Shown piece by piece: positions 1 to 15,149 of a stretch of DNA of 15,272 nucleotides. Within the stretch, counting starts at the first letter, position 1; the number at the start of each line of letters is the position of its first letter. The notes under the pieces were generated by a model. The model ran no database searches and was not told the DNA's origin. It was given only the letters and a program-made list of their open reading frames with translations. A program made the position numbers and the translations under genes. The stretch comes from a virus: the UHGV virus genome UHGV-0202386, one strand, 5' to 3'.

Positions 1-125
1 TCACTGTTGAGGTACATATCAGTAAAGGTCTACCCGGCTTAACGATGGTGGGCTTACCAGAAACAACGGTAAAAGAAGCCCGCGATCGCGTGCGCAGCGC
101 CATTATCAATAGCGGATTTTTATAA
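1..125 (+). pseudogene. comM: comM/yifB 5' fragment, interrupted by the island; frame runs 3 codons into island DNA and stops at TAA 123-125
   Basis: In-frame translation from pos 3 reads [38 protein letters not shown] then FL-stop. This matches the conserved N-terminus of ComM/YifB Mg-chelatase-like ATPases as I recall it. The expected continuation [22 protein letters not shown] is found at the other end of the window. Confidence 0.85.
102..117. repeat. attL core: left copy of the 16-bp junction direct repeat (ATTATCAATAGCGGAT)
   Basis: Same 16-mer with one mismatch at 15134-15149. The left copy is the last stretch of native comM before divergence; the right copy is followed immediately by the comM continuation. 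Confidence 0.65.
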
Positions 126-130
126 ATTAG

Positions 131-240
131 TGTTCTTTGCTGTTTCATAATGTGCCACGTTGTTCGTTATGTTTTTGATTTTTAAACGCATTGCAATTTT
201 TCTTGTTCCAGCTTGTTCCACGTTGTACCCCCTTGTGCAA
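131..240 (+). repeat. Array of about 8 TGTTC/TTGTTC-like motifs with 10-bp periodicity between attL and int
   Basis: TGTTC/TGTTT/TGTGC/TGTTC begin at 131, 141, 151, 161; CTTGTTCCA at 202 and 212, CGTTGTACC at 221, CTTGTGCA at 232. Read directly from the sequence. Confidence 0.6.
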
Positions 241-245
241 TGATC

Positions 246-268
246 GGTGTAGTCACTGGTGTAGTCAT
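246..268 (+). repeat. Tandem decamer GGTGTAGTCA x2 (12-bp spacing), candidate integrase arm-type sites in attL
   Basis: GGTGTAGTCAC 246-256 and GGTGTAGTCAT 258-268. A near-identical tandem pair lies at 15045-15066. Together with TTGTTCCACGTTGT (214-227 / 15013-15026) these form an imperfect direct repeat of about 60 bp just inside both ends. Confidence 0.55.
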
Positions 269-303
269 TTTTTTGCAAAATTGGGGAGCGGGGGAGAATA
301 AAC

Positions 304-1533
304 GTGAGCAGAGCGCTTAACAAACTGAGCGATACATTGTTAAGAAAACTTTATGGTAAGCCAGCGGAGAAAAATACGTTCTATAGCGATGGCGGTAATC
401 TGAGCGTGAAATATTTAACATCAGGTAAATTGACCTGGTACTTCACCTACAGGGCTGGAACGGGAAGGGATACCACACCGGAACGCCTGAAGCTGGGAAA
501 CTATCCCGATCTGAGCCTTAAAGCAGCCAGGGAAAAAGCCGCAAAGTGTCGTGCATGGCTGGCAGAAGGGAAAAACCCACGTCATGAACTGAACTACACT
601 GTGCAGGAAGCGTTAAAACCCGTAACGGTTGGCGATGCGATCAGTTACTGGCTGGAAACGCACGTAAAGGAAAACCGTGTCGATTATGTATGCCTGAAAA
701 GTCGCCTGAATAATCACGTCATACAGCACATCGGTAACATGCCACTGGATAAATGCGAATTACGTCACTGGCTGGCCTGTTTTGACCGGATACGCAAAAA
801 ATCCCCCGTAACGTCTGGTCACATGATGCAGGCGTGTAAACAGGCGCTTAAGTTCTGCCGTAAACGTCGCTACGCAGTCAGTAACGTTCTGGATGATCTC
901 AACGTGGTGGACGTTGGCAAAAAGCCGGGCATAAGCGAACGCGTGCTTAGTAACAAAGAACTGGGCGAATTATTACAGGCGCTGGATAAAAAAATATTCC
1001 CGCCCTACTACAGCGCACTAATCCGCCTCCTGATTGTGTTTGGTTGCCGAACCGGAGAACTGAGGCTGTCGGAGATCAGGGAGTGGGATTTTAAGGAAAT
1101 GCTCTGGACAGTACCGAAGGAGCACAGCAAAACGAAGGTCGCCATATTCAGGCCAATACCGGAAAGCATTTTACCGTTTGTCACACGGCTGGTGGAGCAG
1201 AACCGACACACAGGGCTATTACTCGGGGAACTGAAACAGGAAGCCAGCGTGTCGCAATACGGCAGATTCACGCACAAAAAATTAAACCATCCGCACTGGT
1301 CACTACACGATATACGGCGCACGTTTACCACGATGCTGAATGATTTAGGCGTGGATCCGCATATTGTCGAACAACTCACCGCTCACCAGATGCCAGGGAT
1401 GCAGCGAGTCTATAACCACTCCCGTTATCTCGATGCGAAACGTAATGCGCTGGACATGTGGACAGAGCGGTTAGAGATACTGGCGGGTACTCACGAAAAC
1501 GTAACCACACTGCCAATAGCCAGAGAAATATAA
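304..1533 (+). CDS. int: Tyrosine recombinase / phage integrase (P4-type, with N-terminal arm-binding DUF4102-like region); GTG start
   Basis: 409-aa ORF. N-terminal pattern YSDGGNLSV..LTSGKLTWYFTYR...LKLGNYPDLSLKAAREKAAKCRAWLAEGKNP is typical of P4-family integrase arm domains. C-terminal catalytic signatures GCRTGELR, HWSLHDIRRTF, VYNHSRYLD. RBS-like GGGGGAG upstream of GTG 304. Sits next to attL. Confidence 0.9.
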   Translation: MSRALNKLSDTLLRKLYGKPAEKNTFYSDGGNLSVKYLTSGKLTWYFTYRAGTGRDTTPERLKLGNYPDLSLKAAREKAAKCRAWLAEGKNPRHELNYTVQEALKPVTVGDAISYWLETHVKENRVDYVCLKSRLNNHVIQHIGNMPLDKCELRHWLACFDRIRKKSPVTSGHMMQACKQALKFCRKRRYAVSNVLDDLNVVDVGKKPGISERVLSNKELGELLQALDKKIFPPYYSALIRLLIVFGCRTGELRLSEIREWDFKEMLWTVPKEHSKTKVAIFRPIPESILPFVTRLVEQNRHTGLLLGELKQEASVSQYGRFTHKKLNHPHWSLHDIRRTFTTMLNDLGVDPHIVEQLTAHQMPGMQRVYNHSRYLDAKRNALDMWTERLEILAGTHENVTTLPIAREI

Positions 1534-1554
1534 TTTTTTTCGTGATTTTTCAGA

Positions 1555-1620
1555 ACGGACACAACGTGGAACAACGAGACACAACGACGAACAACAAGGA
1601 ACAAAATGGGACAAGCGGAT
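1555..1620 (-). repeat. Six copies of GAACAACG-like motif exactly 10 bp apart (reverse complement of the TTGTTC motif) between int and alpA
   Basis: ACAACG at 1561, 1571, 1581; ACAACA at 1591; ACAAAA at 1601; ACAAGC at 1611. ACAACGTGGAACAA (1561-1574) is the exact reverse complement of TTGTTCCACGTTGT found at 214-227 and 15013-15026. Confidence 0.6.
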
Positions 1621-1699
1621 TAAAAATCAAACTCATTCATAACCATTTGATTTTTATATGTATACTGTTTTTTTATACACTGGCGAATCACTCTTAAAA

Positions 1700-1734
1700 A
1701 TATGTAAAAAAGGCGTAAAAGCAAAATTTTACGC
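1700..1734 (-). terminator. Candidate intrinsic terminator for leftward transcription (8-bp stem GCGTAAAA/TTTTACGC followed by a T-run on the minus strand)
   Basis: Perfect inverted repeat 1713-1720 / 1727-1734 with 6-nt loop. On the minus strand it is followed by TTTTTTACATATTTTT. The stem is AU-rich, so only moderate. Confidence 0.35.
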
Positions 1735-1871
1735 TACTACATCACAATGAATTAAAAGTATTTTTATTCTAATTACCCCATATCTGTAAAACGACCGTCA
1801 CCAATATTTGCCATTCATCACTCTAGCGGGAACAATACGACACAATAAGACACCAAATGACTCTTTGAGAA

Positions 1872-2075
1872 ATGACGGAGGCAATAGTGTTAAGCGCTGA
1901 TCGCTTTATACGTGAAAAAGAATGTCAGCAACTTACAGGCCTGAGCCGCTCATGTCGGTATCGCCTGGAGAAGACTGGACAATTCCCATCACGGCGTAAA
2001 CTCGGCGGTCGTTCCGTTGGCTGGTCTTTATCCGAAGTTCTGGCATGGAAGGACAGCCGCGAGGCAGTTCACTAA
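1872..2075 (+). CDS. alpA: AlpA-family phage transcriptional regulator / excisionase-like HTH protein
   Basis: Translation RFIREKECQQLTGLSRSCRYRLEKTGQFPSRRKLGGRSVGWSLSEVLAWK matches the AlpA/Phage_AlpA pattern (..GxSRSTIYRL...FP....LG.RSVGW..SEV..W). Alternative in-frame GTG start at 1887 is preceded by GGAGG at 1877-1881. Confidence 0.8.
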   Translation: MTEAIVLSADRFIREKECQQLTGLSRSCRYRLEKTGQFPSRRKLGGRSVGWSLSEVLAWKDSREAVH

Positions 2076-2081
2076 TCAGGC

Positions 2082-2100
2082 TGGCGGCGCACCGCCGCCA
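2082..2100 (+). other. GC-rich stem-loop (TGGCGGCG-CAC-CGCCGCCA) immediately 3' of alpA, with no U-tract
   Basis: Perfect 8-bp stem and 3-nt loop, seen directly. No T-run on either strand, so not a canonical intrinsic terminator. Confidence 0.5.
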
Positions 2101-2216
2101 CCCATCCACTAACACAGAGATCTAACCATGAATACTGGATATACGCCCGAACAGGGGCGGGGCTTCGTTCGTCCTGGTGAAACTAAAAAGCCATGTTATC
2201 GGGTATTTTCAGGCAT

Positions 2217-2287
2217 AAAAAAAGCGGCCCCGATAAGGAACCGCCTTTCTGAACAATTAACCTGCTGCGAAAAAAATGGATCAGTGC
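2217..2287 (-). ncRNA. Candidate small RNA of about 70 nt: extended -10 promoter to intrinsic terminator, in an ORF-free gap
   Basis: Minus-strand TGaTATAAT (plus 2294-2302) gives a predicted start near 2285-2287. Terminator hairpin at 2224-2248 (AAGGCGG..CCGCUU, about 11 bp with wobbles, 5-nt loop) is followed by U7 (plus A-run 2217-2223). No ORF of 60 aa or more on either strand here except the rejected long + frame. Confidence 0.3.
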
Positions 2288-2293
2288 AGGGGA

Positions 2294-2302
2294 ATTATAT
2301 CA
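2294..2302 (-). promoter_or_regulatory. Extended -10 promoter element TGaTATAAT (minus strand), no convincing -35
   Basis: Reverse complement of plus 2294-2302 reads TGATATAAT. Read directly. Confidence 0.35.
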
Positions 2303-2340
2303 ACCGTGTGGTGAAGCGCCACTATTGCCGGATAACAGGC

Positions 2341-2369
2341 AAAACAAAGGCGACCGCAAAAGGGTCGCC
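2341..2369 (-). terminator. Intrinsic terminator of the leftward RHH operon
   Basis: Perfect 7-bp stem GGCGACC/GGTCGCC (2349-2355 / 2363-2369) with 7-nt loop. On the minus strand it is followed by TTTGTTTTG (plus 2341-2348). Lies 66 nt downstream of the stop of ORF 2436-2609. Confidence 0.55.
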
Positions 2370-2435
2370 AGTGGGAACAAGGGAAAACAAAAGCATCACC
2401 AACAATGCCACATTTGCGGCTGGTGGGCAATGTGA

Positions 2436-2609
2436 TCAGTCAGATTTGGTTCGTTCCAAGGTTTGCAACGAGAGTTTTTTCCTGCGCTCTTTAAGGAATT
2501 TCTCAAGAGCAAACGAACAAGGTGCGAATCTTTCTGATTCATGCTCTATCTTTCTGCGCCGTCTTTTCCGTGTCGGTGATAATGTTTTGGTCAATTCTTT
2601 ATCGGTCAT
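2436..2609 (-). CDS. Hypothetical small basic protein (57 aa), second gene of the leftward operon
   Basis: ORF MTDKELTKTLSPTRKRRRRKIEHESERF..., AGGG 8 nt upstream of ATG 2609. An alternative ATG at 2624 has no RBS. A perfect 7-bp hairpin (2631-2637 / 2651-2657) separates it from the upstream gene. Supported mainly by the downstream terminator; no recognisable family. Confidence 0.35.
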   Translation of the reverse strand: MTDKELTKTLSPTRKRRRRKIEHESERFAPCSFALEKFLKERRKKLSLQTLERTKSD

Positions 2610-2666
2610 TGTGTTGCCCTGCATAGCAATGCGCCGTAATACCTTACACCACGGCGCTGGTGATGG

Positions 2667-2846
2667 TTACTCCTGCTCTTTGGCCTTGCGGCGCTGGCGG
2701 CGTTTGATCTCGCCTTGCATTGACGCAATGATGAATTGTGATGTGCTTTCGCCTGATTCTTTCACTGATTCCATGGCGTTTACTATTTCGTGTGGTACAC
2801 GAGCCTTTAGAGCTTGTGATTTTGCGTTTGTTGTACCCGTTGCCAT
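2667..2846 (-). CDS. Small ribbon-helix-helix (Arc/CopG-like) DNA-binding protein, candidate repressor of the divergent early promoter
   Basis: 59-aa ORF MATGTTNAKSQALKARVPHEIVNAMESVKESGESTSQFIIASMQGEIKRRQRRKAKEQE. By eye: beta strand (KARVP), helix, helix, basic tail. RBS AGAGGA upstream of ATG 2846. Faces a promoter overlapped by direct repeats. Confidence 0.65.
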   Translation of the reverse strand: MATGTTNAKSQALKARVPHEIVNAMESVKESGESTSQFIIASMQGEIKRRQRRKAKEQE

Positions 2847-2907
2847 TTCTATTCCTCTGTTGGATTGGTGGGGGACAGTATACACAGAAAAAGCACAAAT
2901 AAAACCC

Positions 2908-2948
2908 TTGACGTGGGCCACACCTAAAGCATATAGTGGGCCACACCT
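2908..2948 (+). promoter_or_regulatory. Rightward early promoter (-35 TTGACG 2908-2913, 18-bp spacer, -10 TATAGT 2932-2937) overlapped by two 13-bp direct-repeat operators GTGGGCCACACCT
   Basis: Repeat copies at 2913-2925 and 2936-2948 (perfect 13/13, 23-bp spacing), one over the -35/spacer and one over the -10/start. Sits in the divergent region between the RHH gene and the rightward ORF cluster. Confidence 0.5.
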
Positions 2949-2974
2949 TGAGATTGTCAAGGTGCATAAATGCA

Positions 2975-3009
2975 AAGCCCCGCAAGTGTCGTTACCACTC
3001 GCAGGGCTT
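2975..3009. other. Strong stem-loop in the 5' leader of the rightward operon; on the minus strand it reads as hairpin plus UUUGCAUUUAU
   Basis: AAGCCCCGCAAGTG (2975-2988) pairs with CACTCGCAGGGCTT (2996-3009) at 12 of 14 positions, 7-nt loop. No T-run on plus; T-rich tail on minus (plus 2961-2974). Confidence 0.5.
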
Positions 3010-3045
3010 CTAACCACCAACGATAGAAAGTGTATCGAGGTAGCT

Positions 3046-3252
3046 ATGAGAAATTATACCAGACACCCGCAAGGGCGGGACTCGTACAACCTGAATAAAT
3101 ACATCTGGCGTTTTATCGCCCTGAGCACGGCACAACCGCGCGTGATTACCATTGAGGCCACCAGCGAACAGGAAGCGCGTCAGCAATCTCCTGATGGCTG
3201 CGTGATGGTATTCGCTGCCCGTATTCGTCAGGGGGTACGCCATGTGCAATAA
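3046..3252 (+). CDS. Hypothetical protein (68 aa), first gene of the rightward early operon
   Basis: ATG 3046 preceded by GAGGT (3037-3041). Translation MRNYTRHPQGRDSYNLNKYIWRFIALSTAQPRVITIEATSEQEARQQSPDGCVMVFAARIRQGV. A vague resemblance to small Icd/Ash-like satellite proteins is my impression only. Confidence 0.6.
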   Translation: MRNYTRHPQGRDSYNLNKYIWRFIALSTAQPRVITIEATSEQEARQQSPDGCVMVFAARIRQGVRHVQ

Positions 3253-3481
3253 CACCCGTCCGGACGCAGCCGCCGAAGCCATCAAAACGCTGATGCACGC
3301 GCTGATTGATATTTCTGTTATCGCAGACAAGGCGCATAAGCGCGCCACCAGCGAAACAGAATATGCCGGGGCTTTCGTTCCTCACTCACTGGCTGTTATG
3401 CAACTTAGTGCGGATATGGCGCTGAATGAGGCTAAAGCCATCCTGATTGCTGATTGTGAAAATGGGGGGGGTTATGCGTGA
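3242..3481 (+). CDS. Hypothetical protein (79 aa)
   Basis: ATG 3242 overlaps the upstream stop; AGGGGG 9 nt upstream. No recognisable family. Confidence 0.55.
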   Translation: MCNNTRPDAAAEAIKTLMHALIDISVIADKAHKRATSETEYAGAFVPHSLAVMQLSADMALNEAKAILIADCENGGGYA

Positions 3482-3707
3482 TGATCGTTTTAATTCCCTG
3501 AAACAGGAATTTTCCGGCGTTCCTGATGATGCGGCTGATGCGCTTTCGTCAATGCCAGAGCTTATTAGAGCGGCTTTTTTCTTACTTTCCACGAGAGAAT
3601 ATAAATCAACGGGGCTTGATGTACTGAATATCGCCGCCGATTATGCGGAATATGTGGCAGAGGCGCGTTATAGAAGAAAATTTCCTGAGGATGTAAGCCA
3701 TGCGTGA
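3474..3707 (+). CDS. Hypothetical protein (77 aa from ATG 3474; alternative ATG 3462)
   Basis: G-rich RBS GGGGGGG upstream. Overlaps neighbours in the coupled ATGA/TGA style. Acidic protein, unknown. Confidence 0.5.
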   Translation: MRDDRFNSLKQEFSGVPDDAADALSSMPELIRAAFFLLSTREYKSTGLDVLNIAADYAEYVAEARYRRKFPEDVSHA

Positions 3708-3933
3708 TATTTACCACGAAACAATAGACCGCGCATTTCTTGCACTTTCTCACAGTGAAAACATGCTGGGAATATTGCGCATATGGCTTGAAACACTTGG
3801 CGACAATGAACGCGACAAACAAAAATCAAGAATTGCCACGGCATTAATAACGCTTCTTGAGCCTGTAATAATGGAACTGCAAGAAATAGATCTATTGCAC
3901 GACAGATATAAAGAACAGCACACCGGAGAATAA
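3700..3933 (+). CDS. Hypothetical protein (77 aa)
   Basis: ATG 3700 overlaps the upstream stop; GAGGA at 3686-3690. Unknown family. Confidence 0.5.
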   Translation: MRDIYHETIDRAFLALSHSENMLGILRIWLETLGDNERDKQKSRIATALITLLEPVIMELQEIDLLHDRYKEQHTGE

Positions 3934-3938
3934 AAATA

Positions 3939-4238
3939 ATGAAACTTAAATATTCTGGCTTAACTGCCAGTGGCAACACTCACCCTAAATTTACGCGCGG
4001 CGATATTTACCGCGACCAGTACGGCGGCACGGTAATGATTAAGGGCGTGGAAGAACGGCGCGTAACCTACCGCCGTGAAGGTTACGAATATGATTGCGTG
4101 ATGCCTGTTTATCAGTTCCGGCGTGATTTTTCTCTGGTACAGACCGCGCCGCATAACGTGTCCACCAGCAACGCCAGGGCACGGGCAAACATCCAGAAGC
4201 TGAAAACCATGATTAACGGATTCAGGGGTAAAAAATGA
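3939..4238 (+). CDS. Hypothetical protein (99 aa), possibly DUF4222-like
   Basis: Motif YRDQYGGTVMIKGVEERRVTYRREGYEYDCVMPVYQFRRDF reminds me of DUF4222 proteins of enterobacterial prophages (memory only). Stop overlaps the primase start. Confidence 0.5.
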   Translation: MKLKYSGLTASGNTHPKFTRGDIYRDQYGGTVMIKGVEERRVTYRREGYEYDCVMPVYQFRRDFSLVQTAPHNVSTSNARARANIQKLKTMINGFRGKK

Positions 4239-6049
4239 AACTGGCACCGAACGTAAAACAGCAGTCACGCGGCATAAAACACAAAGAAACAGAAGTCATT
4301 ATTTTTGCGGGTAGTGATGCCTGGTCACACGCAAAACAATGGCAGGAACATGACGCGCGTATGGCCGGAGATAATGAGCCTCCTGTGTGGCTTGGGGAGC
4401 AGCAGTTATCCGAACTGGATAAGCTGCAAATTGTGCCGGAAGGCAGAAAATCCGTGCGCATATTCAGGGCCGGATATCTTGCGCCAGTAATGATAAAGGC
4501 GATTGGTCAGAAGCTGGCGGCGGCAGGCGTACAGGATGCAAATTTTTATCCTGAGGGTATGCACGGTCAGGAGGTGCAGAACTGGCGCGAATATCTGGCC
4601 CGTGAGCGCCAGAATCTTTCTGATGGTCTGGTGATTCAGCTTCCTGTTAAGAAAAAAACAGAAGACAGCGCCGCACCACTGGCGCTTAACCAGATGGGAG
4701 CAAGCCAGCGCGGCGAAGTTCTCCTGGCACATTATGGCGGTGAACTGGCGATTCATGCCGACTCTGACACTGTTCACCATTACAACGGCGTTGTATGGGA
4801 GCCGATTCAGGATAAAGAGTTACAGCGTGCTATGGCGCAGATTTTCATTGATGCGGAGATCAGCTATTCGCAGAACGCCATTAAATCGGCGGTCGATACC
4901 ATGAAGTTAAGTTTGCCTGTAATGGGGAATACAGCCCGTAACCTGATTGGATTCAGTAACGGGGTATTTGATACCAGAACAGGTAATTTTCGGGAGCATA
5001 ACAAAAACGACTGGTTGTTAATTGCCAGTGAATTACCTTTCAGCCCACCAGCAGAGGGGGAAACGCTGGCAACACATGCGCCGAATTTCTGGAAGTGGTT
5101 ACGCTGCTCGGTGGCAGAGAATGACCGCAAGACGGATCGCGTGCTGGCTGCATTATTCATGGTGCTGGCGAACCGGTACGACTGGCAGTTATTCATTGAG
5201 GTAACAGGTCCAGGGGGAAGTGGTAAAAGCGTGATGGCGGAGATTTGCACTATGCTGGCGGGTAAGGCCAACACAGTATCGGCAAGCATGAAGGCGCTGG
5301 AAGATGCAAGGGAACGCGCGTTAGTGGTTGGCTTTTCGCTGATTATCATGCCGGATATGACCCGCTACGCTGGTGATGGCGCAGGAATTAAGGCCATTAC
5401 AGGCGGTGACAAGGTGGCAATCGACCCGAAGCATAAAGCCCCCTACTCAACACGCATTCAGGCGGTCGTGCTGGCGGTGAACAATAACGCCATGTCATTC
5501 AGTGACCGCAGCGGGGGGATCTCACGTCGTCGGGTGATATTCAATTTTTCGGAGGTTGTACCGGAGAACGAGCGCGACCCCATGCTGGCAGAAAAAATAG
5601 AAGGAGAGCTGGCGGTTGTGATTCGCCATCTGCTTACTCGTTTTTCTGACCAGGACGAAGCTAAACGCCTGCTGTATGAGCAGCAGAAATCAGAAGAAGC
5701 TCTGGTGATAAAACGCGAGGGCGATTCGCTGGTGGACTTCTGTGGCTATCTCATGTCGTCGGTAATGTGTGATGGTCTGTTAGTGGGTAATGCCGAAATT
5801 ATTCCGTTCAGTCCGCGCAGGTATCTTTATCACGCCTATCTGGCATATATGAGGGCACACGGATTCGGTAAACCTGTAACACTGACGCGCTTCGGTAAAG
5901 ATATGCCGGGGGCAATGGCGGAATATGGCAGGGAGTATATAAAACGGAAAACGAAGCACGGTTTGCGTTCAAATGTGACACTGACAGAGGATTCAGAAGA
6001 CTGGATGCCATCATGTGCATCGGTCACAAATGACGACAGCAAAAATTAA
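4235..6049 (+). CDS. Replication initiator: P4-alpha-like primase / SF3 helicase (Walker A GPGGSGKS)
   Basis: 604-aa ORF. Walker A in VTGPGGSGKSVMAE, Walker B-like LIIMPDM, sensor AVVLAVNNN. Followed directly by TGTTCACC iterons, as for P4 alpha and its ori. Confidence 0.8.
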   Translation: MKLAPNVKQQSRGIKHKETEVIIFAGSDAWSHAKQWQEHDARMAGDNEPPVWLGEQQLSELDKLQIVPEGRKSVRIFRAGYLAPVMIKAIGQKLAAAGVQDANFYPEGMHGQEVQNWREYLARERQNLSDGLVIQLPVKKKTEDSAAPLALNQMGASQRGEVLLAHYGGELAIHADSDTVHHYNGVVWEPIQDKELQRAMAQIFIDAEISYSQNAIKSAVDTMKLSLPVMGNTARNLIGFSNGVFDTRTGNFREHNKNDWLLIASELPFSPPAEGETLATHAPNFWKWLRCSVAENDRKTDRVLAALFMVLANRYDWQLFIEVTGPGGSGKSVMAEICTMLAGKANTVSASMKALEDARERALVVGFSLIIMPDMTRYAGDGAGIKAITGGDKVAIDPKHKAPYSTRIQAVVLAVNNNAMSFSDRSGGISRRRVIFNFSEVVPENERDPMLAEKIEGELAVVIRHLLTRFSDQDEAKRLLYEQQKSEEALVIKREGDSLVDFCGYLMSSVMCDGLLVGNAEIIPFSPRRYLYHAYLAYMRAHGFGKPVTLTRFGKDMPGAMAEYGREYIKRKTKHGLRSNVTLTEDSEDWMPSCASVTNDDSKN

Positions 6050-6062: not shown

Positions 6063-6293
6063 CTGTTCACCACTGTTCACCCTGTTATAAATATCTTTTA
6101 TATCAGTACATTATAGGGTGAACAGTTATTTGTGAACTGTTCACCAAACTATTCACTGTTCACCTTTTTGATTATTTATTGAGCTTTAAGGGTGAACAGT
6201 GGTGAACAGTTGGTGAATAGTTTTTGTGAAACTGTTCACCCCTTAACGTTATGAATAAAAAGGGAAAATCTCAAAAGGTGAACAGGTGAAGGG
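6063..6293. repeat. Origin of replication: about 11 copies of the 9-mer CTGTTCACC (P4 type-I iteron TGTTCACC) in both orientations
   Basis: Plus-orientation copies at 6063, 6073, 6137, 6156, 6232; reverse-orientation GGTGAACAG at 6117, 6191, 6201, 6277, with variants at 6212 and 6285. AT-rich spacers. Lies immediately downstream of the primase. Confidence 0.8.
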
Positions 6294-7004: not shown

Positions 7005-7040
7005 TTCACAACAGCGAACAGAGTAATTACAGGGGAAGGC

Positions 7041-7847: not shown

Positions 7848-7864
7848 AGGTTTTGTAAATTATT

Positions 7865-7890: not shown

Positions 7891-7980
7891 GTGATTCTGG
7901 TTGATGTTTACATACTGATTTTTATGTATATGTTGGCGTGTGGCACTCAGACGTGAGCCGCCACAATGCCGCCTGATCCC

Positions 7981-8083: not shown

Positions 8084-9229
8084 ATGAAGAAATTAATCGA
8101 ACTCCGCCAGCAAAAAACCGCCCTGAAAAACCAGATGCGATCCCTGCTGGAAAAAGCCGACAGTGAAAACCGCAGTCTAACCGATGACGAAGGCAAACAG
8201 TTTGATGAACTGCGTGCAAAAGCCGATTCCCTCGACACAGAAATTTCCCGCCTCGAGTCTGTGGCTGATGAAGAACGTAACCAGCCTGGTGTTCCCGTCG
8301 AAGATAAAATCACCAAAAATGAGCTACGCTCTTACATTCTGACCGGGGAAACCCGCAACCTGTCCGGCAGTGTTCCGGCTGATGGTGGTTATACGGTTAT
8401 CCCGGAACTGAACAGAGAAATTATGCGTCAGCTTTCTGATGAGTCGGTGATGCGTAAAATCTGTACTGTTAAAACCATTCACAGTAATGAATTTAAGCAA
8501 CTGGTTTCTGCCGGGGGTGCGGTCGTGGGACACGGCGAAGAAGGTGCGGCACGTAACCAGACGGCAACCCCAAAACTGAATGAAGTCAGTATCCGCCTGT
8601 ATCCGATCTACGCTTACCCGAAAACCACTCAGGAAATTATCGATTTTTCCGAAGTCGATATTATGGGCTGGTTATCTTCTGAAATTGGCGACACTTTCGT
8701 TGATACCGAAGAAACGGATCTGGTTTCCGGTGATGGCGAGAAAAAAGCCAAAGGTTTCCTGACTTTCCCGCGCGCTACGGATAATGACAAAACCCGTCCT
8801 TTCGGTACGCTCCAGACGAAAAAAGTGACTGGCAGTCTCAGCGCCGATATGCTGATTGACCTGAAATTTACGCTGCGCAATAAGTACCGCAAAAAAGCTG
8901 TATGGGTGATGAACTCAAATACAGCCGCCTCCGCACAAAAACTGAAAAATGCCACTGGTGATTACATCTGGCGCGATCGTTTACAGGCTGGTGATCCTGA
9001 TTCTCTGCTGGGGCTTCCGGTTGAATATCTGGAATTTATGCCGGACGGTGTGATTGCAGTCGGTGACTTTAAGCGCGGTTATTTCATCGTTGACCATAAA
9101 ACCGGTACGCGTACCCGTCCGGATTTCAGCGAGCCTGGATTCATTAACATCTATACCCAGAAATATCTGGGCGGTGGTGTGGTGGATTCGAACGCCATCA
9201 AGATTCTGGAAATTCAGGCTGGCAAGTAA
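8084..9229 (+). CDS. HK97-family major capsid protein with N-terminal coiled-coil delta/scaffold domain
   Basis: 381 aa. N-terminal about 70 aa is charged coiled-coil (ELRQQKTALKNQMRSLLEKADSENRSL..). C-terminal motifs LLGLPVEYLEFMP..GDFKRGYFIVDHKTG...YLGGGVVDSNAIKILE are typical of Phage_capsid (HK97 fold). Confidence 0.85.
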   Translation: MKKLIELRQQKTALKNQMRSLLEKADSENRSLTDDEGKQFDELRAKADSLDTEISRLESVADEERNQPGVPVEDKITKNELRSYILTGETRNLSGSVPADGGYTVIPELNREIMRQLSDESVMRKICTVKTIHSNEFKQLVSAGGAVVGHGEEGAARNQTATPKLNEVSIRLYPIYAYPKTTQEIIDFSEVDIMGWLSSEIGDTFVDTEETDLVSGDGEKKAKGFLTFPRATDNDKTRPFGTLQTKKVTGSLSADMLIDLKFTLRNKYRKKAVWVMNSNTAASAQKLKNATGDYIWRDRLQAGDPDSLLGLPVEYLEFMPDGVIAVGDFKRGYFIVDHKTGTRTRPDFSEPGFINIYTQKYLGGGVVDSNAIKILEIQAGK

Positions 9230-9278: not shown

Positions 9279-9839
9279 ATGAAAAACACCGATTTTGAAA
9301 TCCGTACATCTGAACTGACCGCCAGCGATAAAAAACTGGTGGGTTATGCCGTTCGCTGGAACAGCCTTTCAGAAATTATCTGGGACGAGTTTCGCGAACA
9401 GTTCACGCCGGGGGCTTTTGCTGACTATCTGGCGGCGGGTAATGATGTGCGCTGTCTGTATGAGCATGACTATACCCAACTGCTGGGGCGTACCAAATCC
9501 GGCTCACTGGTACTGACTGAGGATAACACCGGGCTACGTTTTGAACTGACACCGCCAAATACCCAGCTTGGAAAAGATGTGCTTACGCTGGTGGAACGTG
9601 GCGATATTACAGGAATGAGCTTTGGCTTTCGCGCATTATGCGAGGAGTGGAATATCGCGCAAAAACCGTATCTGCGTACTGTAACCGCCGCAGAACTCCG
9701 TGAAATCACGATAACATCGATGCCTGCTTATCCCGAATCCGGCGTGGAGATTGCCCACCGTTCGTTGTTTGCACAGTACCCTGAATTACGCCCGGCAGGA
9801 AATAATCGTCATCGCTGGGCTGAACTGGCGGGGTTGTGA
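9279..9839 (+). CDS. HK97-family prohead (maturation) protease
   Basis: MKNTDFEIR...LVGYAVRWN...FTPGAFADYL...VRCLYEHD..QLLGRTKSGSLVLTEDNTGLRFE...GKDVLTLVERGDITGMSFGF matches the Peptidase_S78/U35 prohead-protease pattern. GGAG RBS at 9268-9271. Confidence 0.85.
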   Translation: MKNTDFEIRTSELTASDKKLVGYAVRWNSLSEIIWDEFREQFTPGAFADYLAAGNDVRCLYEHDYTQLLGRTKSGSLVLTEDNTGLRFELTPPNTQLGKDVLTLVERGDITGMSFGFRALCEEWNIAQKPYLRTVTAAELREITITSMPAYPESGVEIAHRSLFAQYPELRPAGNNRHRWAELAGL

Positions 9840-9840: not shown

Positions 9841-11055
9841 ATGTGGTGGCCTTTTAGTCGTAAAAAAAGCGATCTGCGTAACCTGTCCATTGATGATTTT
9901 CTGGCGTTGTCTGGTGTACCAAATACCGGATCCGGAGAATATGTTTCTGCCGGGACGGCTGAATCATTGCCTGCTGTGATGAACGCGGTTTCTGTCATCG
10001 CTGAGGCGGTGGCCACGATGCCGTGTTACCTGTATCTGGTACGCAATGATAAGGGCAGAGAGGCGCGGGAATGGCTGGACAGTCACCCGGTAGATATTCT
10101 GCTGAATGAGCAGCCTAATTCGTGCCTGACACCTTACCAGTTTAAACGCACAATGATGCGTCACTGCCTGCTGAACGGTAACGCCTATGCGGTTATTGAG
10201 TGGGGGCGGGACGGGCAGCCAAAATCACTTCATCCTTATGCGCCGGGGTGTGTTGTACCGGAACGCACAGGCACACACAAATACCGCTATACCATCACCG
10301 AACCCTGTACAGGAACGGTGCGCACGTATTTACAGGAAGAAGTTCTGCATCTCCGCTATGCCTCGGATGATGGCTTTCTGGGGCGTTCCCCCGTCACGAT
10401 TTGCCGTGAGGCGCTGGGGCTTGGCCTTGCTCAACAGCGCCACGGAGCCAGCATTATGAAAGATGGCATGATGGCGGCAGGGATTATCACGTCAGGTGAA
10501 TGGCTGGACGGCGTGAAAGGTAAACAGGCATTAGACGCACTGGAACGCTACAAGGGGGCGAAAAATGCCGGAAAAACGCCAATCCTTGAAGGGGGCATGG
10601 ATTACAGGCAGCTGGGGATGAGTAACCAGGATGCGGAATGGCTGGCCTCCCGTCGCTTCTCCATTGAAGACATCGCCAGGATGTTCAACGTGTCGCCGAT
10701 TTTTCTTCAGGAATACAGCAACAGCACCTACAGCAATTTCAGTGAGGCGAGCCGCGCATTTCTGACCATGACAATGCGCCCGTGGCTGGCGAACTTCGAA
10801 CAGCAAATCAAGGCCGCTTTGCTGGTGACTTCTCCCGTACCTGGTACCCGTTATCTGGTTGAGTTTGATTCAGCCGATTTACTGCGCGCCACACCCACCG
10901 AACGTTATGCCACGTATGAGAAAGGGATTAAGAGCGGGATCATGAATCCGAACGAAGCTCGCGAACGCGAGGGTATGCCGCCGCGTGAAGGTGGTGATGA
11001 GTTCAGCCAGGCATGGAAACAGACTGTGGAAATTAAAGGGAGAAAAGATGAGTGA
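9841..11055 (+). CDS. HK97-family portal protein
   Basis: 404 aa from ATG 9841, 1 nt after the protease stop. Long conserved portal-like core (NAYAVIEWGRDGQP..., SIMKDGMMAAGIITSGEWLDG..., FLTMTMRPWLANFEQQIKAALL). Position and size fit a portal. Confidence 0.8.
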   Translation: MWWPFSRKKSDLRNLSIDDFLALSGVPNTGSGEYVSAGTAESLPAVMNAVSVIAEAVATMPCYLYLVRNDKGREAREWLDSHPVDILLNEQPNSCLTPYQFKRTMMRHCLLNGNAYAVIEWGRDGQPKSLHPYAPGCVVPERTGTHKYRYTITEPCTGTVRTYLQEEVLHLRYASDDGFLGRSPVTICREALGLGLAQQRHGASIMKDGMMAAGIITSGEWLDGVKGKQALDALERYKGAKNAGKTPILEGGMDYRQLGMSNQDAEWLASRRFSIEDIARMFNVSPIFLQEYSNSTYSNFSEASRAFLTMTMRPWLANFEQQIKAALLVTSPVPGTRYLVEFDSADLLRATPTERYATYEKGIKSGIMNPNEAREREGMPPREGGDEFSQAWKQTVEIKGRKDE

Positions 11056-11350
11056 AGCCAGAATTACACCTGATGAAGTCAGGGCACATCTTCGACTTGA
11101 TGATGATTTATCCGGTGAAGGCGAACTTCTGAAAATGTATACCGATGCGGCGCTGGAAGCCTGCCAGAAGCATATCGGGAAACGTTTTGAAGACGGGCTG
11201 GAATTTACCCCGGCAATGCGTGTTGGTTGCCTGATGTACATCGCTTTCCTGTACGAGAACCGGGAAGCGGTTTCACCAGTGGAGCAGTCTGAACTGCCTA
11301 TGGCTATTTCTGCGCTCTGGTCAGTTTATCGTGATGTAGGGGTGTACTGA
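11048..11350 (+). CDS. gp6-like head-tail connector (head completion/adaptor) protein
   Basis: 100 aa. MSEARITPDEVRAHLRLDDDLSGEGELLKMYTDAALEACQKHIGKRF matches the Phage_connect_1 N-terminal pattern (..HLRID.D.D...I......AA). Start overlaps the portal stop. Confidence 0.7.
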   Translation: MSEARITPDEVRAHLRLDDDLSGEGELLKMYTDAALEACQKHIGKRFEDGLEFTPAMRVGCLMYIAFLYENREAVSPVEQSELPMAISALWSVYRDVGVY

Positions 11351-11790
11351 TGCCGTGGCAACCATTAAGGCGATGCACTGAGCCGGGCTGTAATAAGCGC
11401 GTGAAGTCCGGCAAGTGTGAAGAGCACAGGCGGGCTGTATGGCGTGCAGAGGATGCCAGACGGGGACACCGCCGCGCGCGCGGGTATTCCCGACAGTGGG
11501 ACAAATACCGCGCCCTGTACCTGAGCAAAAACCCGTTATGCGTGCGTTGTCTGGCTAAGGGGATTTATACGCCAGCTCTTGTGGTGGATCACATCATCCC
11601 CATCAATGGCGGCGGTGATGTTCTCTTCTGGCCTGAGTGGAACCACCAGGCATTGTGCCAGACGTGCCACAACCGTAAGACGACACGGGAAGATCCAGCC
11701 ACGAAAGCGAACCGTAAGGCGGGCATGTATCGCGAGCAGGAAGAACGGGCAGCACACCGTAACGACTGGATGTATGGCGATGATGACTGA
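11350..11790 (+). CDS. Phage HNH endonuclease (terminase-associated)
   Basis: Cys-rich zinc finger (CTEPGCNKRVKSGKCEEH ... CVRC ... CQTCHNRKT) with VVDHIIPINGGGD..WNHQALC HNH core. Located immediately upstream of terS/terL, as in HK97-like cos phages. ATG overlaps the upstream stop (TGATG). Confidence 0.8.
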   Translation: MPWQPLRRCTEPGCNKRVKSGKCEEHRRAVWRAEDARRGHRRARGYSRQWDKYRALYLSKNPLCVRCLAKGIYTPALVVDHIIPINGGGDVLFWPEWNHQALCQTCHNRKTTREDPATKANRKAGMYREQEERAAHRNDWMYGDDD

Positions 11791-11959
11791 ACAGGAGCAA
11801 ACCAGGCTGATACGTGGACTGATAAGGCAGCGTGACTTATGGAAGACACAGGAGACAGGGCACAAAGCCAACAGGACAGGGCGCACAAAACGCACCACAG
11901 CGAAGCGATTAACCGACCGTGACCGCGAGGCCATGGAATGTTTTCGCAATCGCTGGTGA
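11780..11959 (+). CDS. Doubtful small basic ORF (about 59 aa) overlapping the HNH stop; may instead be non-coding cos DNA
   Basis: ATG-ATG at 11780/11783, no clear RBS. Arg/Lys/Thr-rich low-complexity translation. Confidence 0.2.
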   Translation: MMTEQEQTRLIRGLIRQRDLWKTQETGHKANRTGRTKRTTAKRLTDRDREAMECFRNRW

Positions 11960-12078
11960 GGCCGTCAGAGGGGGTGGGGGTGGTTTTCAGGACGAAACCG
12001 TCCCTGCCGGACACCGACCGCCTCCTCAAATTTTTGTGCACGGGAATTTTTTTGAAAATAATTGGGCGAAAAAAGAAC
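11791..12078 (+). other. Candidate cos/packaging-recognition region between HNH and terS, containing a G-rich tract
   Basis: 288-bp gap without a convincing gene. GGGGGTGGGGGTGG at 11970-11983 followed by a CAGGACG-AAAC-CGTCCCTG hairpin. Location argument: in HK97-like phages cos lies between the HNH gene and terS. Confidence 0.3.
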
Positions 12079-12435
12079 ATGGCAAGACCACCAAAAGCCC
12101 CCGCTTACCTGGATGAAATCGCGGTCAGGCAGTGGAAGGAAAAATCGCGCCAGCTTTCCGGACGGGAAGACCTTACCCCCGCCGACTGGAGCAATCTGGA
12201 GCTGTATTGTGTTAACTACTCCATATACCGCAAAGCCGTCGAAGACCTTGCCACGCGCGGGTTCAGCATTGTTAACAGTCAGGGCAGCGAGAGCAGAAAC
12301 CCCGCCCTGAGCGCAAAGGCTGACGCTGAAAGAATAATGATCAAAATGGCTTCTTTGCTGGGTTTTGACCCGGTAAGTCGCCGCAGAAATCCACCGGAAA
12401 CAGAGGAAGAGGACGAGCTTGACCGCCTGGCATGA
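12079..12435 (+). CDS. terS: Terminase small subunit, P27 family
   Basis: MARPPKAPAYLDEIAVRQWKEK...LELYCVNYSIYRKAVEDL...GSESRNPALSAKADAERIMIKMASLLGFDPVSRRR matches the P27-family TerS pattern. The ORF-track N-terminal extension (from 11938) has no support. Confidence 0.75.
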   Translation: MARPPKAPAYLDEIAVRQWKEKSRQLSGREDLTPADWSNLELYCVNYSIYRKAVEDLATRGFSIVNSQGSESRNPALSAKADAERIMIKMASLLGFDPVSRRRNPPETEEEDELDRLA

Positions 12436-14080
12436 GTACGCAGAAGGCGTAAAAAACGGCAAAATTACGGCCTGTAAACGACTGAAACAGGCCGTTAAAC
12501 GGTATTTTTCTGACCTTGAAAACCCCCTTTACACGTTCGATCCGGAGGTCGTGGAGCGGTTTATTGCCTTTTCCAGGGTGTGTCCGCACGTAAAAGGCGC
12601 AATGCGCGGTAGCCCCATTGAGCTGGAGCCGTGGCAGCAGTTCGCCTTTGCGTGCATCCTGGGCTTTAAGGTTAAGGCCACCGGACGGCGCAAATACACC
12701 AGCGCATTCATTGAAGTGCCGCGAAAAAATGCCAAATCCACGGTCGCCGCTATCCTGGCTAACTGGTTTCTGGTTATGGAAAACGGGCAGCAGGATATTT
12801 ACACCGCCGCTGTGAGTCGTGATCAGGCGCGGATCGTGTTTGATGATGCGCGTCAGATGTGCCTTTTATCCCGACCGTTACGAAAGCGGGTAAATATTCA
12901 GGCACACAAGGTGATACACCCGAAAACCAACAGCCTGTTAAAGCCACTGGCAGCAAAAGCGGCAACCATTGAAGGTACAAACCCGAGTCTTGCCATTGTG
13001 GATGAATATCACCTGCACCCTGACAACGGGGTTTATTCCGCGCTTGAACTGGGAATGGGGGCGCGTCCGGAGGGGCTGTTATTTGCCATCACCACATCGG
13101 GGAGCAACGTTGTTTCAGCCTGTAAACAACACTATGACTATTGCTGCCAGATACTGGATGGTGAAGAGGTGAACGAATCCATGTTCGTGCTGATTTACGA
13201 GCTGGATGATGAAAGCGAGGTTGACGATCCGGCGATGTGGATAAAGGCGAATCCCAATATCGATGTTTCCGTCGATCGTGAAAAACTGGCCTCAACCATC
13301 CAGAAAGCGCGGGGTATTCCGTCGCAGTGGGTGGAAATGCTCACCAAGCGATTCAATATCTGGTGTCAGGGGGCTACGCCGTGGATGGGTAACGGTGCAT
13401 GGGCGGAGTGCGCCGGAACGTTCGCGGAGGCGGATTTATACGGTCAGGAGTGCTACGCGGGGCTGGACTTATCATCAACCAGCGATATTTCCAGCGTGTG
13501 CTATGCCTTTCCGGTCGGTAAAAAGATTATGCTGGTTTCCCGTCACTATCTGCCGGAATTTCAGCTACAGAACCCCGCCAATAAAAACCGCGCCATCTAT
13601 CGCCAGTGGGTAAAGGCGGGCTGGATACGCACAACACCGGGTGACTGCATTGATTATGACCGTATCCGTGATGACATCATGGCGGATGCAGAGAATTTCA
13701 ATATCAGGCTGGTGGGCTTCGATACATGGAACGCCACGCACCTGAGGACGCAGCTACAGGGGGCAGGATTTGAGGTGGAGCCGTTCCCGCAAACATACCT
13801 TCGTTTCAGTCCGGCGGCGAAATCGTTCGAAGTTTTTGTTAACCGGAAGGTGATTGTGCATCGTGGCGATCCGGTGCTGGCCTGGTCAATGAGTAATGTT
13901 GTGATGCAGAGTGACGCGAACGCCAATATCAAGCCGAACAAGAAAAAATCATCCAACAAGATAGACCCGAGCGTTGCGGCTCTGATGGCGTTTGGCACAT
14001 TCCAGGCAGAACATGAGGAATTTGCATTTGATATAAGCGACAGCCACAAAGAGCGGCTTGCGGCGTTTGATGGGGTATGA
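12419..14080 (+). CDS. terL: Terminase large subunit (Terminase_1-like ATPase/nuclease); apparent TTG start overlapping terS by 17 nt
   Basis: 553 aa. Size, position after terS and a conserved-looking N-terminal region (PWQQFAFACILGFKV..., DIYTAAVSRDQARIVFDDAR). No in-frame ATG until codon 62; GAGGA at 12408-12412 precedes TTG 12419. Confidence 0.85.
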   Translation: MTAWHEYAEGVKNGKITACKRLKQAVKRYFSDLENPLYTFDPEVVERFIAFSRVCPHVKGAMRGSPIELEPWQQFAFACILGFKVKATGRRKYTSAFIEVPRKNAKSTVAAILANWFLVMENGQQDIYTAAVSRDQARIVFDDARQMCLLSRPLRKRVNIQAHKVIHPKTNSLLKPLAAKAATIEGTNPSLAIVDEYHLHPDNGVYSALELGMGARPEGLLFAITTSGSNVVSACKQHYDYCCQILDGEEVNESMFVLIYELDDESEVDDPAMWIKANPNIDVSVDREKLASTIQKARGIPSQWVEMLTKRFNIWCQGATPWMGNGAWAECAGTFAEADLYGQECYAGLDLSSTSDISSVCYAFPVGKKIMLVSRHYLPEFQLQNPANKNRAIYRQWVKAGWIRTTPGDCIDYDRIRDDIMADAENFNIRLVGFDTWNATHLRTQLQGAGFEVEPFPQTYLRFSPAAKSFEVFVNRKVIVHRGDPVLAWSMSNVVMQSDANANIKPNKKKSSNKIDPSVAALMAFGTFQAEHEEFAFDISDSHKERLAAFDGV

Positions 14081-14370
14081 CGAGAATGAGCGAAACCGAA
14101 CTACTAAAAATAATCCGTCGCGTTACCGGAATCAGCCAGGAAGCAGGCAAACAGGAGGCCACGCAGCCGGACAGCGTGATAGCCGAAAATTACGCGCGTG
14201 TGGTGGCTGAGGTGATGCGCCGTGACGGTATCGAGCTTAACGGCGTGGATATACGCAATATACGCACCAGAGTTCTGGAGTTGTTGTCATATCGTCGCCG
14301 CGTGGAGATGTACCAGGAGAAAGAAAAAATTACTTACCACTGGAAGAAGCCGGAGCGGTTACGACGTTAA
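14077..14370 (+). CDS. Hypothetical protein (97 aa) translationally coupled to terL
   Basis: ATG 14077 overlaps the terL stop (ATGA). Alternative ATG at 14086. Unknown family. Confidence 0.5.
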   Translation: MTRMSETELLKIIRRVTGISQEAGKQEATQPDSVIAENYARVVAEVMRRDGIELNGVDIRNIRTRVLELLSYRRRVEMYQEKEKITYHWKKPERLRR

Positions 14371-14376
14371 CTTGTG

Positions 14377-14426
14377 GTGACATACCGTGACGGAGAGTGA
14401 CAACCAGTGACACACAGTGACAAAAA
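14377..14426 (+). repeat. Five GTGAC(A) motifs at exactly 10-bp spacing (one face of the helix)
   Basis: GTGAC starts at 14377, 14387, 14397, 14407, 14417 (GTGACATACC / GTGACGGAGA / GTGACAACCA / GTGACACACA / GTGACAAAAA). Begins 7 bp after the last stop codon. Confidence 0.7.
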
Positions 14427-14445
14427 GACGGTATTTAAATAGAGT

Positions 14446-14472
14446 GGGTGTTTAATACCCCCCGTTTTTTTT
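14446..14472 (+). terminator. Weak candidate terminator of the late operon (short stem then T8)
   Basis: GGGTG..TACCC stem (about 5 bp), then CCCG and TTTTTTTT at 14465-14472. A larger GGTATT/AATACC stem (14430-14435 / 14454-14459) encloses it. Stem is weak and separated from the T-run. Confidence 0.35.
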
Positions 14473-14483
14473 CGTGTGGTGCA

Positions 14484-14498
14484 TGGTCAAAATGACCA
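14484..14498. promoter_or_regulatory. Perfect 6-3-6 palindrome TGGTCA-AAA-TGACCA (operator-like)
   Basis: Read directly; typical geometry for a dimeric HTH-protein binding site. Confidence 0.45.
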
Positions 14499-14624
14499 CG
14501 GAGAAGATACGCACCGAAGCAGAACAATTACCGTAGGTTAAAGCGACAGTATTCACACCAGCAACCTGATTATCAATTTTCAGCCGTTCGGTGGCATCAC
14601 TGGCCCCATTTTCCTGATGGGGTT

Positions 14625-14676
14625 GCGGGTTATTTGGGGGGGATTTGCGGGTTATTTTGAATGTCTCGCGGGTTAC
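14625..14676 (+). repeat. Three direct copies of GCGGGTTA at 22-bp spacing
   Basis: Copies at 14625-14632, 14647-14654, 14669-14676, preceded by a CCCCAT/ATGGGG hairpin (14604-14622). Confidence 0.6.
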
Positions 14677-14752
14677 GCTTTGGCTAATATTCAAACGCAT
14701 CATTTTTTAACCCATTGATATTAAATAATAAAAAACACTTAGCAAGCGAAGA

Positions 14753-14777
14753 TAACCCGCTAACCCGCATAACCCGC
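14753..14777 (-). repeat. Three tandem copies of TAACCCGC (reverse complement of GCGGGTTA) at 8-9 bp spacing
   Basis: 14753-14760, 14761-14768, 14770-14777. Forms an inverted arrangement with the 14625-14676 array around a 76-bp AT-rich centre (14677-14752). Confidence 0.6.
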
Positions 14778-14785
14778 ACTGTTTT

Positions 14786-14799
14786 GTATATATATATAC
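14786..14799. repeat. 14-bp alternating palindrome GTATATATATATAC
   Basis: Read directly; immediately follows the TAACCCGC repeats. Confidence 0.6.
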
Positions 14800-15000
14800 G
14801 AAAAATTGCATTCAGGAGGTGGGATCGAAATCCCTACAACCCATTGCTTATGGGACTGCCCGCCCCGTCAAATTTTTACACCCGCGAAAAATACTTCAAG
14901 CTGGTGGGCATGATGCCGATATGGGGATCCCCATGTCGACATTAACGCCCCTCATGAATTGGCGTGCTTCCCCCTGGAAAGATGACCCGCCTGTATATTT

Positions 15001-15066
15001 CTTGTGTCTATTTGTTCCACGTTGTTTCATACAGTGCACCGAACGGTGTAGTTACTGGTGTAGTCA
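15001..15066 (+). repeat. Right-arm copy of the terminal repeat: 3 phased TTGT motifs, TTGTTCCACGTTGT, and tandem GGTGTAGTTA/GGTGTAGTCA
   Basis: TTGT at 15002, 15012, 15022. TTGTTCCACGTTGT 15013-15026 is identical to 214-227. GGTGTAGTTACTGGTGTAGTCAT 15045-15067 versus left GGTGTAGTCACTGGTGTAGTCAT 246-268. Confidence 0.6.
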
Positions 15067-15133
15067 TTTTGCGATTTTTAAAGTTATCTAAGATATTATT
15101 TGTCATTTAAATTCAATTGGTTATGAGTACTTG

Positions 15134-15149
15134 ATTATAAATAGCGGAT
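15134..15149. repeat. attR core: right copy of the 16-bp junction repeat (ATTATAAATAGCGGAT)
   Basis: 15 of 16 identical to 102-117. comM sequence resumes in frame from here. Confidence 0.65.

Follow-up and report, generated by a model that had tools for sequence, protein, structure and literature searches.

The window analysed here, all 15,272 nucleotides of UHGV virus genome UHGV-0202386, is a segment of the Escherichia coli chromosome and very probably holds an intact capsid-forming phage-inducible chromosomal island (cf-PICI) of the EcCIEDL933 family, which its tyrosine integrase would have placed at a 16-bp core within comM/yifB. The element adds one more member to a class known since 2022 (Alqurainy et al., bioRxiv 10.1101/2022.09.08.507074) and abundant in Enterobacteriaceae. 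The prototype, EcCIEDL933 from E. coli O157:H7 EDL933, is 15.4-15.5 kb long and has int, alpA, rep, capsid, protease, portal, head-tail connector, HNH, TerS and TerL genes, with no tail genes. It makes its own small capsids in experiments (T=4, 47.5 nm across; capsid structure PDB 9GYI), packages itself and needs a helper phage for tails alone (10.1101/2022.09.08.507074). An earlier note, made from the letters of the window, had proposed a complete, tail-less satellite of this class, and this assignment is borne out by synteny with EcCIEDL933 and by the components that the program SatelliteFinder looks for.

The ends of the element are defined by an empty-site comparison. The first 117 and the last 139 bases of the window are the two halves of comM/yifB: positions 1-117 align with yifB of E. 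coli K-12 at 99% and positions 15134-15272 at 98%, on adjacent stretches that overlap by 16 bp, the core repeat. Because these flanks rejoin exactly on the intact K-12 gene, the element is a 15,032-bp insertion (window 118-15149) that splits comM/yifB and duplicates the 16-bp core. A repeat search and the K-12 alignment agree to the base with the junction repeats that the earlier note had put at 102 and 15149, and its complete element of about 15 kb between them stands. E. coli E500002 carries a 99.4%-identical copy at the same site, where RefSeq calls the comM halves pseudogene fragments. Six E. coli attB sites are listed for published cf-PICIs; a literature text search gave no useful record of a PICI at yifB/comM.

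From the capsid gene to the last gene, the window contains full-length orthologues of the EDL933 genes in the same order (56-94% amino-acid identity), except for the adaptor/head-closure gene, and the packaging module is 80.6% identical in nucleotide sequence over 95% of its length. Pfam recovers the integrase, AlpA and the head and packaging genes that had been listed from the sequence (Table 1). The capsid loop proposed to set capsid size (residues 227-248) aligns without gaps with the EcCIEDL933 protein, and the connector shares 34-39% identity with the Ad1 proteins of SfI, SfII, ST64B and phiP27. The predicted lack of tail, tape-measure, baseplate and lysis genes survived a closer screen: no tail, tape-measure, baseplate, holin or endolysin family was found by Pfam and/or PHROGs among the open reading frames (ORFs) of at least 60 amino acids in the window, and small proteins inspected by eye have no membrane-spanning segments. 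The remaining ORFs encode SSB, ProQ/FinO, DUF4222, Icd-like and YlcI/YnfO-family proteins and small PHROG families of no assigned function. The "full" HK97-type head and packaging set of the earlier note holds for capsid, protease, portal, connector, HNH, TerS and TerL, and fails for the adaptor/head-closure gene, which is absent by tblastn and by profile search.

The cfPICI model of SatelliteFinder (PMC10085698) has 11 core components and forbids tails and holins; a match of 10/11 is termed "Type B", and 9/11 is also accepted. We find 10 of the 11 components and none of the forbidden tail and holin families (Pfam/PHROG), which makes the element a "Type B" cfPICI. Present are an integrase at one end with att repeats on both flanks, AlpA, a replicase with an iteron origin, the element's own capsid, protease and portal, a gp6-like connector, and the order hnh-terS-terL after the morphogenetic genes. 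The head-tail adaptor is missing, which lowers the match without excluding membership. A classical Gram-negative PICI relies on the capsid and terminase of its helper, and portal, connector and adaptor are forbidden in it; this element has its own portal and connector genes, and TerL as well.

The adaptor, presumably of the SPP1 gp16 / HK97 gp7 type, has no tblastn match in the window, and a profile built from 66 family adaptors gave a best E value of 0.65 against its six frames, compared with 1e-41 for the control. The portal gene (ending at 11055) and the connector gene (starting at 11048) overlap by 8 nt, and there is no remnant between them. Two genes lie between portal and HNH in EcCIEDL933 and KpCIDSM30104, namely the adaptor ("phage head closure protein") and the gp6-like connector; EcCIGN02175 is reported with the same pair, and it is this pair that decides which phage tails can be used (He et al., 10.1101/2025.02.11.637232). 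In EcCIEDL933, mutating each gene of the packaging module abolished transfer, except for 1792, where transfer was severely reduced (10.1101/2022.09.08.507074). Judged by gene content, the adaptor-less form departs from all studied cf-PICIs, which carry the second head-tail gene.

Of 5426 complete E. coli genomes, about 150 (∼3%), SMS-3-5 among them, have portal, connector and HNH directly adjoining one another in a stretch at least 94.7% identical to the window; among the matches listed, all three genes are always annotated there. We extended the comparison to 80 related loci from other species, sampled at one genome per species. Two head-tail genes are found in 66 of the 76 informative loci and one gene in 10 loci from nine species: Xenorhabdus sp. 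TCT-1 (two loci), Symbiopectobacterium (two, one of them on the 17.4-kb end of the same contig), Candidatus Pantoea formicae, Pantoea rodasii, Yersinia aleksiciae, Leclercia, Erwinia psidii and Gilliamella. An eleventh such locus, from Xenorhabdus yunnanensis, is truncated and was left out of the count. The one-gene forms are scattered over a neighbour-joining tree of the connectors, which suggests that the adaptor was lost repeatedly. An element in the allE/allC intergenic region of E. coli AST19 (L089) has replicase, portal, connector and TerS proteins 100% identical to those of the window and an integrase only 82% identical. The comparison shows that the lineage is mobile and that integrase or att specificity has been exchanged within it.

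Over its helicase and origin-binding regions the replicase is of the P4 alpha type, with 49.5% identity to P4 alpha across residues 137-594 and a match of residues 496-592 to the structure of the P4 origin-binding domain (1KA8, E = 3e-24). The origin directly behind it, with nine exact copies of TGTTCACC in 6064-6284, was recognised correctly in the earlier note, and the octamer is the same as the annotated "ori type 1 repeat" of P4. The same note had called the protein a P4-alpha-like primase; helicase and origin-binding homology and the identity of the iterons uphold the first part of that name, whereas the P4 N-terminal primase domain is unmatched. Instead, residues 1-145 (window 4235-4669), in which Pfam detects no domain, share 87.6% identity with the N-terminal end of the EcCIEDL933 DUF927 Rep, a protein that is unrelated in its other parts, so that the replicase looks chimeric. 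Its pairing with a PICI is not unusual, as a classical PICI in E. coli BH100 (L086) holds a full-length homologue with 50% identity, and the int-alpA-rep half is described in published work as common to PICIs and cf-PICIs.

A second cluster of iterons lies in the right arm and consists of GCGGGTTA, the octamer of DUF927-type Rep origins, which differs from that of the element's own origin. Clusters of this octamer are also found in L090 (6609-6724 and 14841-14986), in L002 (8061-8367) and in the BH100 element (14047-14192), and a sibling element at the same comM site has it both downstream of rep and in the right arm. This sibling is 99.7% identical to the window from 6546 on and 95% identical in 1-2696; between 2696 and 6546 there are just two short matches (274 nt at 93% and 259 nt at 83%). 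As the two elements are near-identical outside ∼2.7-6.5 kb and the right-arm iterons fit a DUF927-type Rep, the comparison points to an exchange of the early/replication region of the window, which would have left iterons mismatched to the present replicase. The BH100 PICI, whose replicase is of a third type, has the same cluster at its right end.

Two cos-like sites could be located. The first (cos1) lies between the HNH-adjacent small ORF and terS, a position kept in 46 of the 80 related loci. The annotated cos of phiP27 likewise lies between HNH and terS, so that cos1 has the canonical HK97/phiP27 placement. The linear ends of the deposited genome vB_KppS-Ant appear to flank it, with the 3' end aligning to window 11971-11993 and the 5' end lying 22 nt upstream of the terS of that genome. 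The second site (cos2) has the same orientation as cos1, with zero such sites expected by chance, and is 89% identical to the phiP27 cos region over 63 nt and 97% over 38 nt. It falls within 311 nt that share 91% identity with the BH100 classical PICI at its right end. This site is absent from EcCIEDL933 and from the allE/allC copy, and the full right arm is found in just ∼20 genomes.

We propose the following life cycle. A helper prophage would switch on alpA; AlpA together with the integrase would then excise the element and activate its operons, with the phased TTGTTCS repeats as candidate sites. The helicase/origin-binding replicase would fire the TGTTCACC origin, while the element's own capsid protein, protease and portal would build small, probably T=4, HK97-type procapsids. 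HNH, TerS and TerL would cut at cos1 and package unit genomes of ∼15 kb, after which the gp6-like connector would cap the portal. Tails and lysis would come from the helper phage and so, probably, would the neck (adaptor/head-closure) protein; supply of the neck protein by the helper would be the most economical reading of the missing adaptor. This cycle goes beyond the observed boundaries, gene content, homology, synteny and spread: its functional steps, including excision, replication, capsid formation and transfer, are all inferred by homology with EcCIEDL933. Three further points weigh against an intact, working cf-PICI. Lacking an adaptor, the element might be unable by itself to retain DNA or to attach tails; neither Pfam nor alignment with P4 alpha reveals a primase domain in residues 1-136 of the replicase; and the element's own terminase might also cleave cos2 and so break up the genome. 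Another reading is a sub-lineage with wider helper dependence, in which the adaptor was lost repeatedly and both neck protein and tail are borrowed, and in which the comM copy has a second packaging route through a helper terminase acting at cos2 and helper-sized capsids. We consider this possible, though doubtful.

The serious rival is a transfer-defective cf-PICI, crippled by adaptor loss, that integrates and perhaps replicates and makes capsids, yields no infectious particles and persists mainly by vertical descent. The absence of any adaptor sequence is what such an element would present, published work finds adaptor and connector required for tail use, which they determine, and most related loci retain both genes. 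The arrangement left behind is, however, a clean one, with overlapping portal and connector genes and full-length genes elsewhere; the one-gene form recurs in the ∼150 E. coli genomes and, with identical proteins, at two or more integration sites, and its scatter over the connector tree in nine other species is hard to square with a dead end. The distribution data thus argue against this alternative, which we regard as unlikely.

It is very improbable that the element is no satellite but the remains of an HK97/phiP27-like prophage stripped of its tail, lysis and immunity regions. Its head and packaging genes are phage-derived, as the Ad1-type connector and the P27-family TerS attest, but the ∼40-kb genome and the tail, lysis and immunity modules of such a prophage are missing while both att cores are intact at a 15-kb spacing. 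The order capsid-protease-portal-connector-HNH-terS-terL is that of cf-PICIs, whereas phiP27 has HNH-cos-terS-terL-portal-capsid, and the left half is a PICI/P4-type int-alpA-replicase module. Related loci with this module occur across Enterobacterales, Pasteurellaceae and the Gilliamella/Frischella group. When the element was compared by megablast with 50,697 phage records, none covered more than 30% of it, and the best one, vB_KppS-Ant, is itself organised as a cf-PICI. A P4-like satellite that remodels the capsid of a P2-type helper is hardly credible, for although the helicase/origin-binding domain, the identical TGTTCACC iterons and the AlpA/Vis homologue are shared, no homologue of the psu-delta-sid operon or of epsilon is found and other Pfam/PHROG families account for all ORFs, the integrase is 23% identical to that of P4, and capsid, portal and terminase genes are the element's own.

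Some deposited phage genomes resemble the element described here. The 16.5-kb genome LR881103.1, "Escherichia phage vB_KppS-Ant" (L003), was submitted as an induced prophage and is organised as a cf-PICI. It and L008 have adaptor proteins with 100% identity, which places it in the KpCIDSM30104 lineage, and its "tail length tape measure protein", encoded after terL in the accessory region, is probably misnamed. The Pasteurella "phages" Pmp7 (10.7 kb) and Pmp8 (15.3 kb) look like similar cases.

TTGTTCS repeats with 10-bp phasing occur at four places in the element (9 matches versus 0.1 expected). The same four-place layout is found in EcCIEDL933 and in a Shigella flexneri cf-PICI (L026), both with similar int/alpA, and is absent from the compared elements whose int/alpA are ∼50% identical. 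Exact copies of the GGTGTAGTYA pairs are confined to the two att arms. It is plausible that GGTGTAGTYA represents candidate integrase arm sites and TTGTTCS candidate AlpA sites, and AlpA would then plausibly serve as both excision factor and operon activator, like its P4 homologue Vis, whose role we take from the annotation of the P4 record. Promoter and terminator scans were overall not above shuffled expectation and were used solely as positional hints. Directly after the last gene, at 14378-14425, there are five GTGAC repeats spaced by ∼10-11 bp, and the 47-nt stretch that includes them (14386-14432) is 98% identical in the S. flexneri element.

In the early region, a 374-aa plus-strand ORF (2128-3252) was rejected as a gene over most of its length: it has no Pfam match, its codon-position GC profile is flat, unlike that of real genes, and its frame is 48% conserved, compared with 81% for the overlapping minus-strand ORF of 62 amino acids. 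The final 71 codons, which make up the Icd-like gene, are the one part that appears genuine. The two small minus-strand genes (2436-2846) have PHROG matches with E values of 2e-13 and 2e-22. RefSeq annotates the plus strand in EDL933 (a homologous 247-aa hypothetical protein) and the minus strand in closer relatives; judged by conservation and composition, the minus-strand genes are the better supported, and the EDL933 annotation may be spurious. PADLOC assigned no defence family to ten small or accessory proteins (six early-region, three pre-capsid and the last gene product), and an Rfam scan of the whole window returned no family at gathering score.

Table 1. Features of the comM/yifB element, in window positions
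Feature	Position	Strand	Evidence or description
attL core ATTATCAATAGCGGAT	102-117		16 bp, identical to K-12 attB inside comM/yifB
Left arm repeat block	196-271	+	TTGTTCS decamers 203-229; GGTGTAGTCA twice at 246-267; candidate AlpA/integrase arm-type sites
Tyrosine integrase with arm-binding domain	304-1533	+	Pfam Arm-DNA-bind_3, Phage_integrase; 84.5% amino-acid identity to EcCIEDL933 integrase
About six phased TTGTTCS-type decamers	1558-1614	-	Between int and alpA, upstream of alpA
AlpA regulator/excisionase-like	1887-2075	+	Pfam Phage_AlpA 3e-18; 89% to EcCIEDL933 AlpA; 46% to P4 ORF88 (Vis)
62-aa hypothetical	2436-2624	-	PHROG match; minus frame 81% conserved versus EDL933
YlcI/YnfO-family protein	2667-2846	-	PHROG match; RefSeq annotation of sibling locus
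Icd-like protein/PHROG "transcriptional repressor"	3037-3252	+	RefSeq annotation of sibling; PHROG
Four small function-unassigned genes, the last DUF4222 (3939-4238)	3242-4238	+	PHROG/Pfam
Replicase, 604 aa	4235-6049	+	Pfam D5_N/DUF5906/Pox_D5; SF3 helicase; origin-binding domain
Replication origin	6064-6284		9 exact and 1 near TGTTCACC iterons, both orientations, around AT-rich spacers; directly after replicase gene
81-aa hypothetical	within 6337-7810	+	PHROG/Pfam
SSB	6579-7004	+	PHROG/Pfam
ProQ/FinO-domain protein (RNA-chaperone family)	7041-7571	+	PHROG/Pfam
82-aa hypothetical	within 6337-7810	+	PHROG/Pfam
Three TTGTTCS decamers, then promoter-like site	7864-7934 (decamers 7864-7890; promoter-like 7907-7934)	+	Upstream of packaging/capsid operon
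HK97-fold major capsid protein, N-terminal delta/scaffold domain	8084-9229	+	Pfam 7e-61; 74% to EcCIEDL933 major capsid protein/PDB 9GYI
Prohead serine protease S78	9279-9839	+	Pfam; RefSeq
Portal	9841-11055	+	Pfam 2e-91
gp6-like connector (PHROG "adaptor Ad1"), sole head-tail gene	11048-11350	+	Pfam, PHROG
HNH endonuclease (packaging cofactor)	11350-11790	+	Pfam, PHROG
61-aa basic protein, kept in EcCIEDL933	11774-11959	+	PHROG; homology
cos1, family-conserved, upstream of terS	11960-12078	+	Core 12018-12035 CCGCCTCCTCAAATTTTT
TerS, P27 family	12079-12435	+	Pfam; RefSeq
TerL	12419-14080	+	Pfam; 93.7% to EcCIEDL933 TerL
Last gene, homologue of EcCIEDL933 last gene (probably 1792, by position); also in classical PICI	14086-14370	+	PHROG; homology
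Orphan iteron cluster	14625-14778		GCGGGTTA, three forward and three reverse, around AT-rich spacer
cos2, second cos-like site, noncoding right arm near attR	14815-14895	+	Core 14860-14877 CCGCCCCGTCAAATTTTT
Right arm repeat block	14995-15070	+	TTGTTCS 15012-15028; GGTGTAGTYA twice at 15045-15066; 78% identical to left arm block
attR core ATTATAAATAGCGGAT	15134-15149		15/16 identical to attL core; single synonymous mismatch C>A

cf-PICIs are recently recognised gene-transfer agents that act within and between species, and the adaptor-connector pair determines the tails with which they are compatible. An adaptor-less lineage is common in nature, at ∼3% of complete E. coli genomes, and lends itself to asking whether the adaptor is indispensable and what the minimal satellite-encoded head-completion set is. 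The element also documents free exchange of replication, integration and right-arm modules among classical PICIs, cf-PICIs and P4-type elements. The common adaptor-less form, the extra cos site of classical-PICI type and the evidence for module swaps are the points worth carrying forward; otherwise the work is a correct identification of a known element type and opens no new question.

Set against cf-PICI and P4 references, as the earlier note had suggested, the element is syntenic with EcCIEDL933 and shares with P4 the alpha-type helicase/origin-binding region, type-1 iterons positioned, like those of P4 crr, shortly after the replicase gene, and a homologue of Vis/AlpA. It differs from P4 in that the alpha primase domain is unmatched and sid, psu, delta and epsilon are absent here, and in that P4 has no capsid, portal or terminase genes. 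The BH100 classical PICI, located at cspD/clpS, resembles the window in its int-alpA-Icd-DUF4222-primase-SSB left half, in a homologue (70%) of the last gene and in the right-end block with GCGGGTTA and a cos-like core. It carries a protease/capsid fusion and a DUF1441 protein in place of a full capsid, portal and terminase set, and therefore depends on helper capsids and terminase. For another PICI, EcCICFT073, the cspD/clpS site in CFT073 was found empty.

Locus L008 comes from Klebsiella pneumoniae ATCC 13883, assumed here to be one and the same type strain with DSM 30104. Through it and vB_KppS-Ant we compared the KpCIDSM30104/EcCIGN02175 lineage (He et al., 2025). The portal (86-88%) and protease (85%) of this lineage are closer to those of the window than are their EcCIEDL933 counterparts, and the replicase is 74% identical; integrase and AlpA (∼50%) and capsid protein (68%) are more distant, and both adaptor and connector genes are present there.

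EcCIEDL933 itself occupies the roxA/phoQ intergenic site instead of comM, and its Rep C-terminal part and origin are of the DUF927/GCGGGTTA type instead of P4-alpha/TGTTCACC. It has a PerC-family regulator in the accessory slot that holds ProQ/FinO here, and it carries the adaptor/head-closure gene that is missing here; the phiP27/classical-PICI-type cos-like site and the orphan iteron cluster in the right arm are additions of the window element. The two elements are otherwise alike in size (15.0 kb here versus 15.4-15.5 kb), in the absence of tail and lysis genes and in the conservation of DUF4222 and SSB, and they share one gene order: int, alpA, Icd-like, small genes, DUF4222, Rep, ori, SSB, accessory, capsid, protease, portal, connector, HNH, small ORF, cos, terS, terL and last gene.

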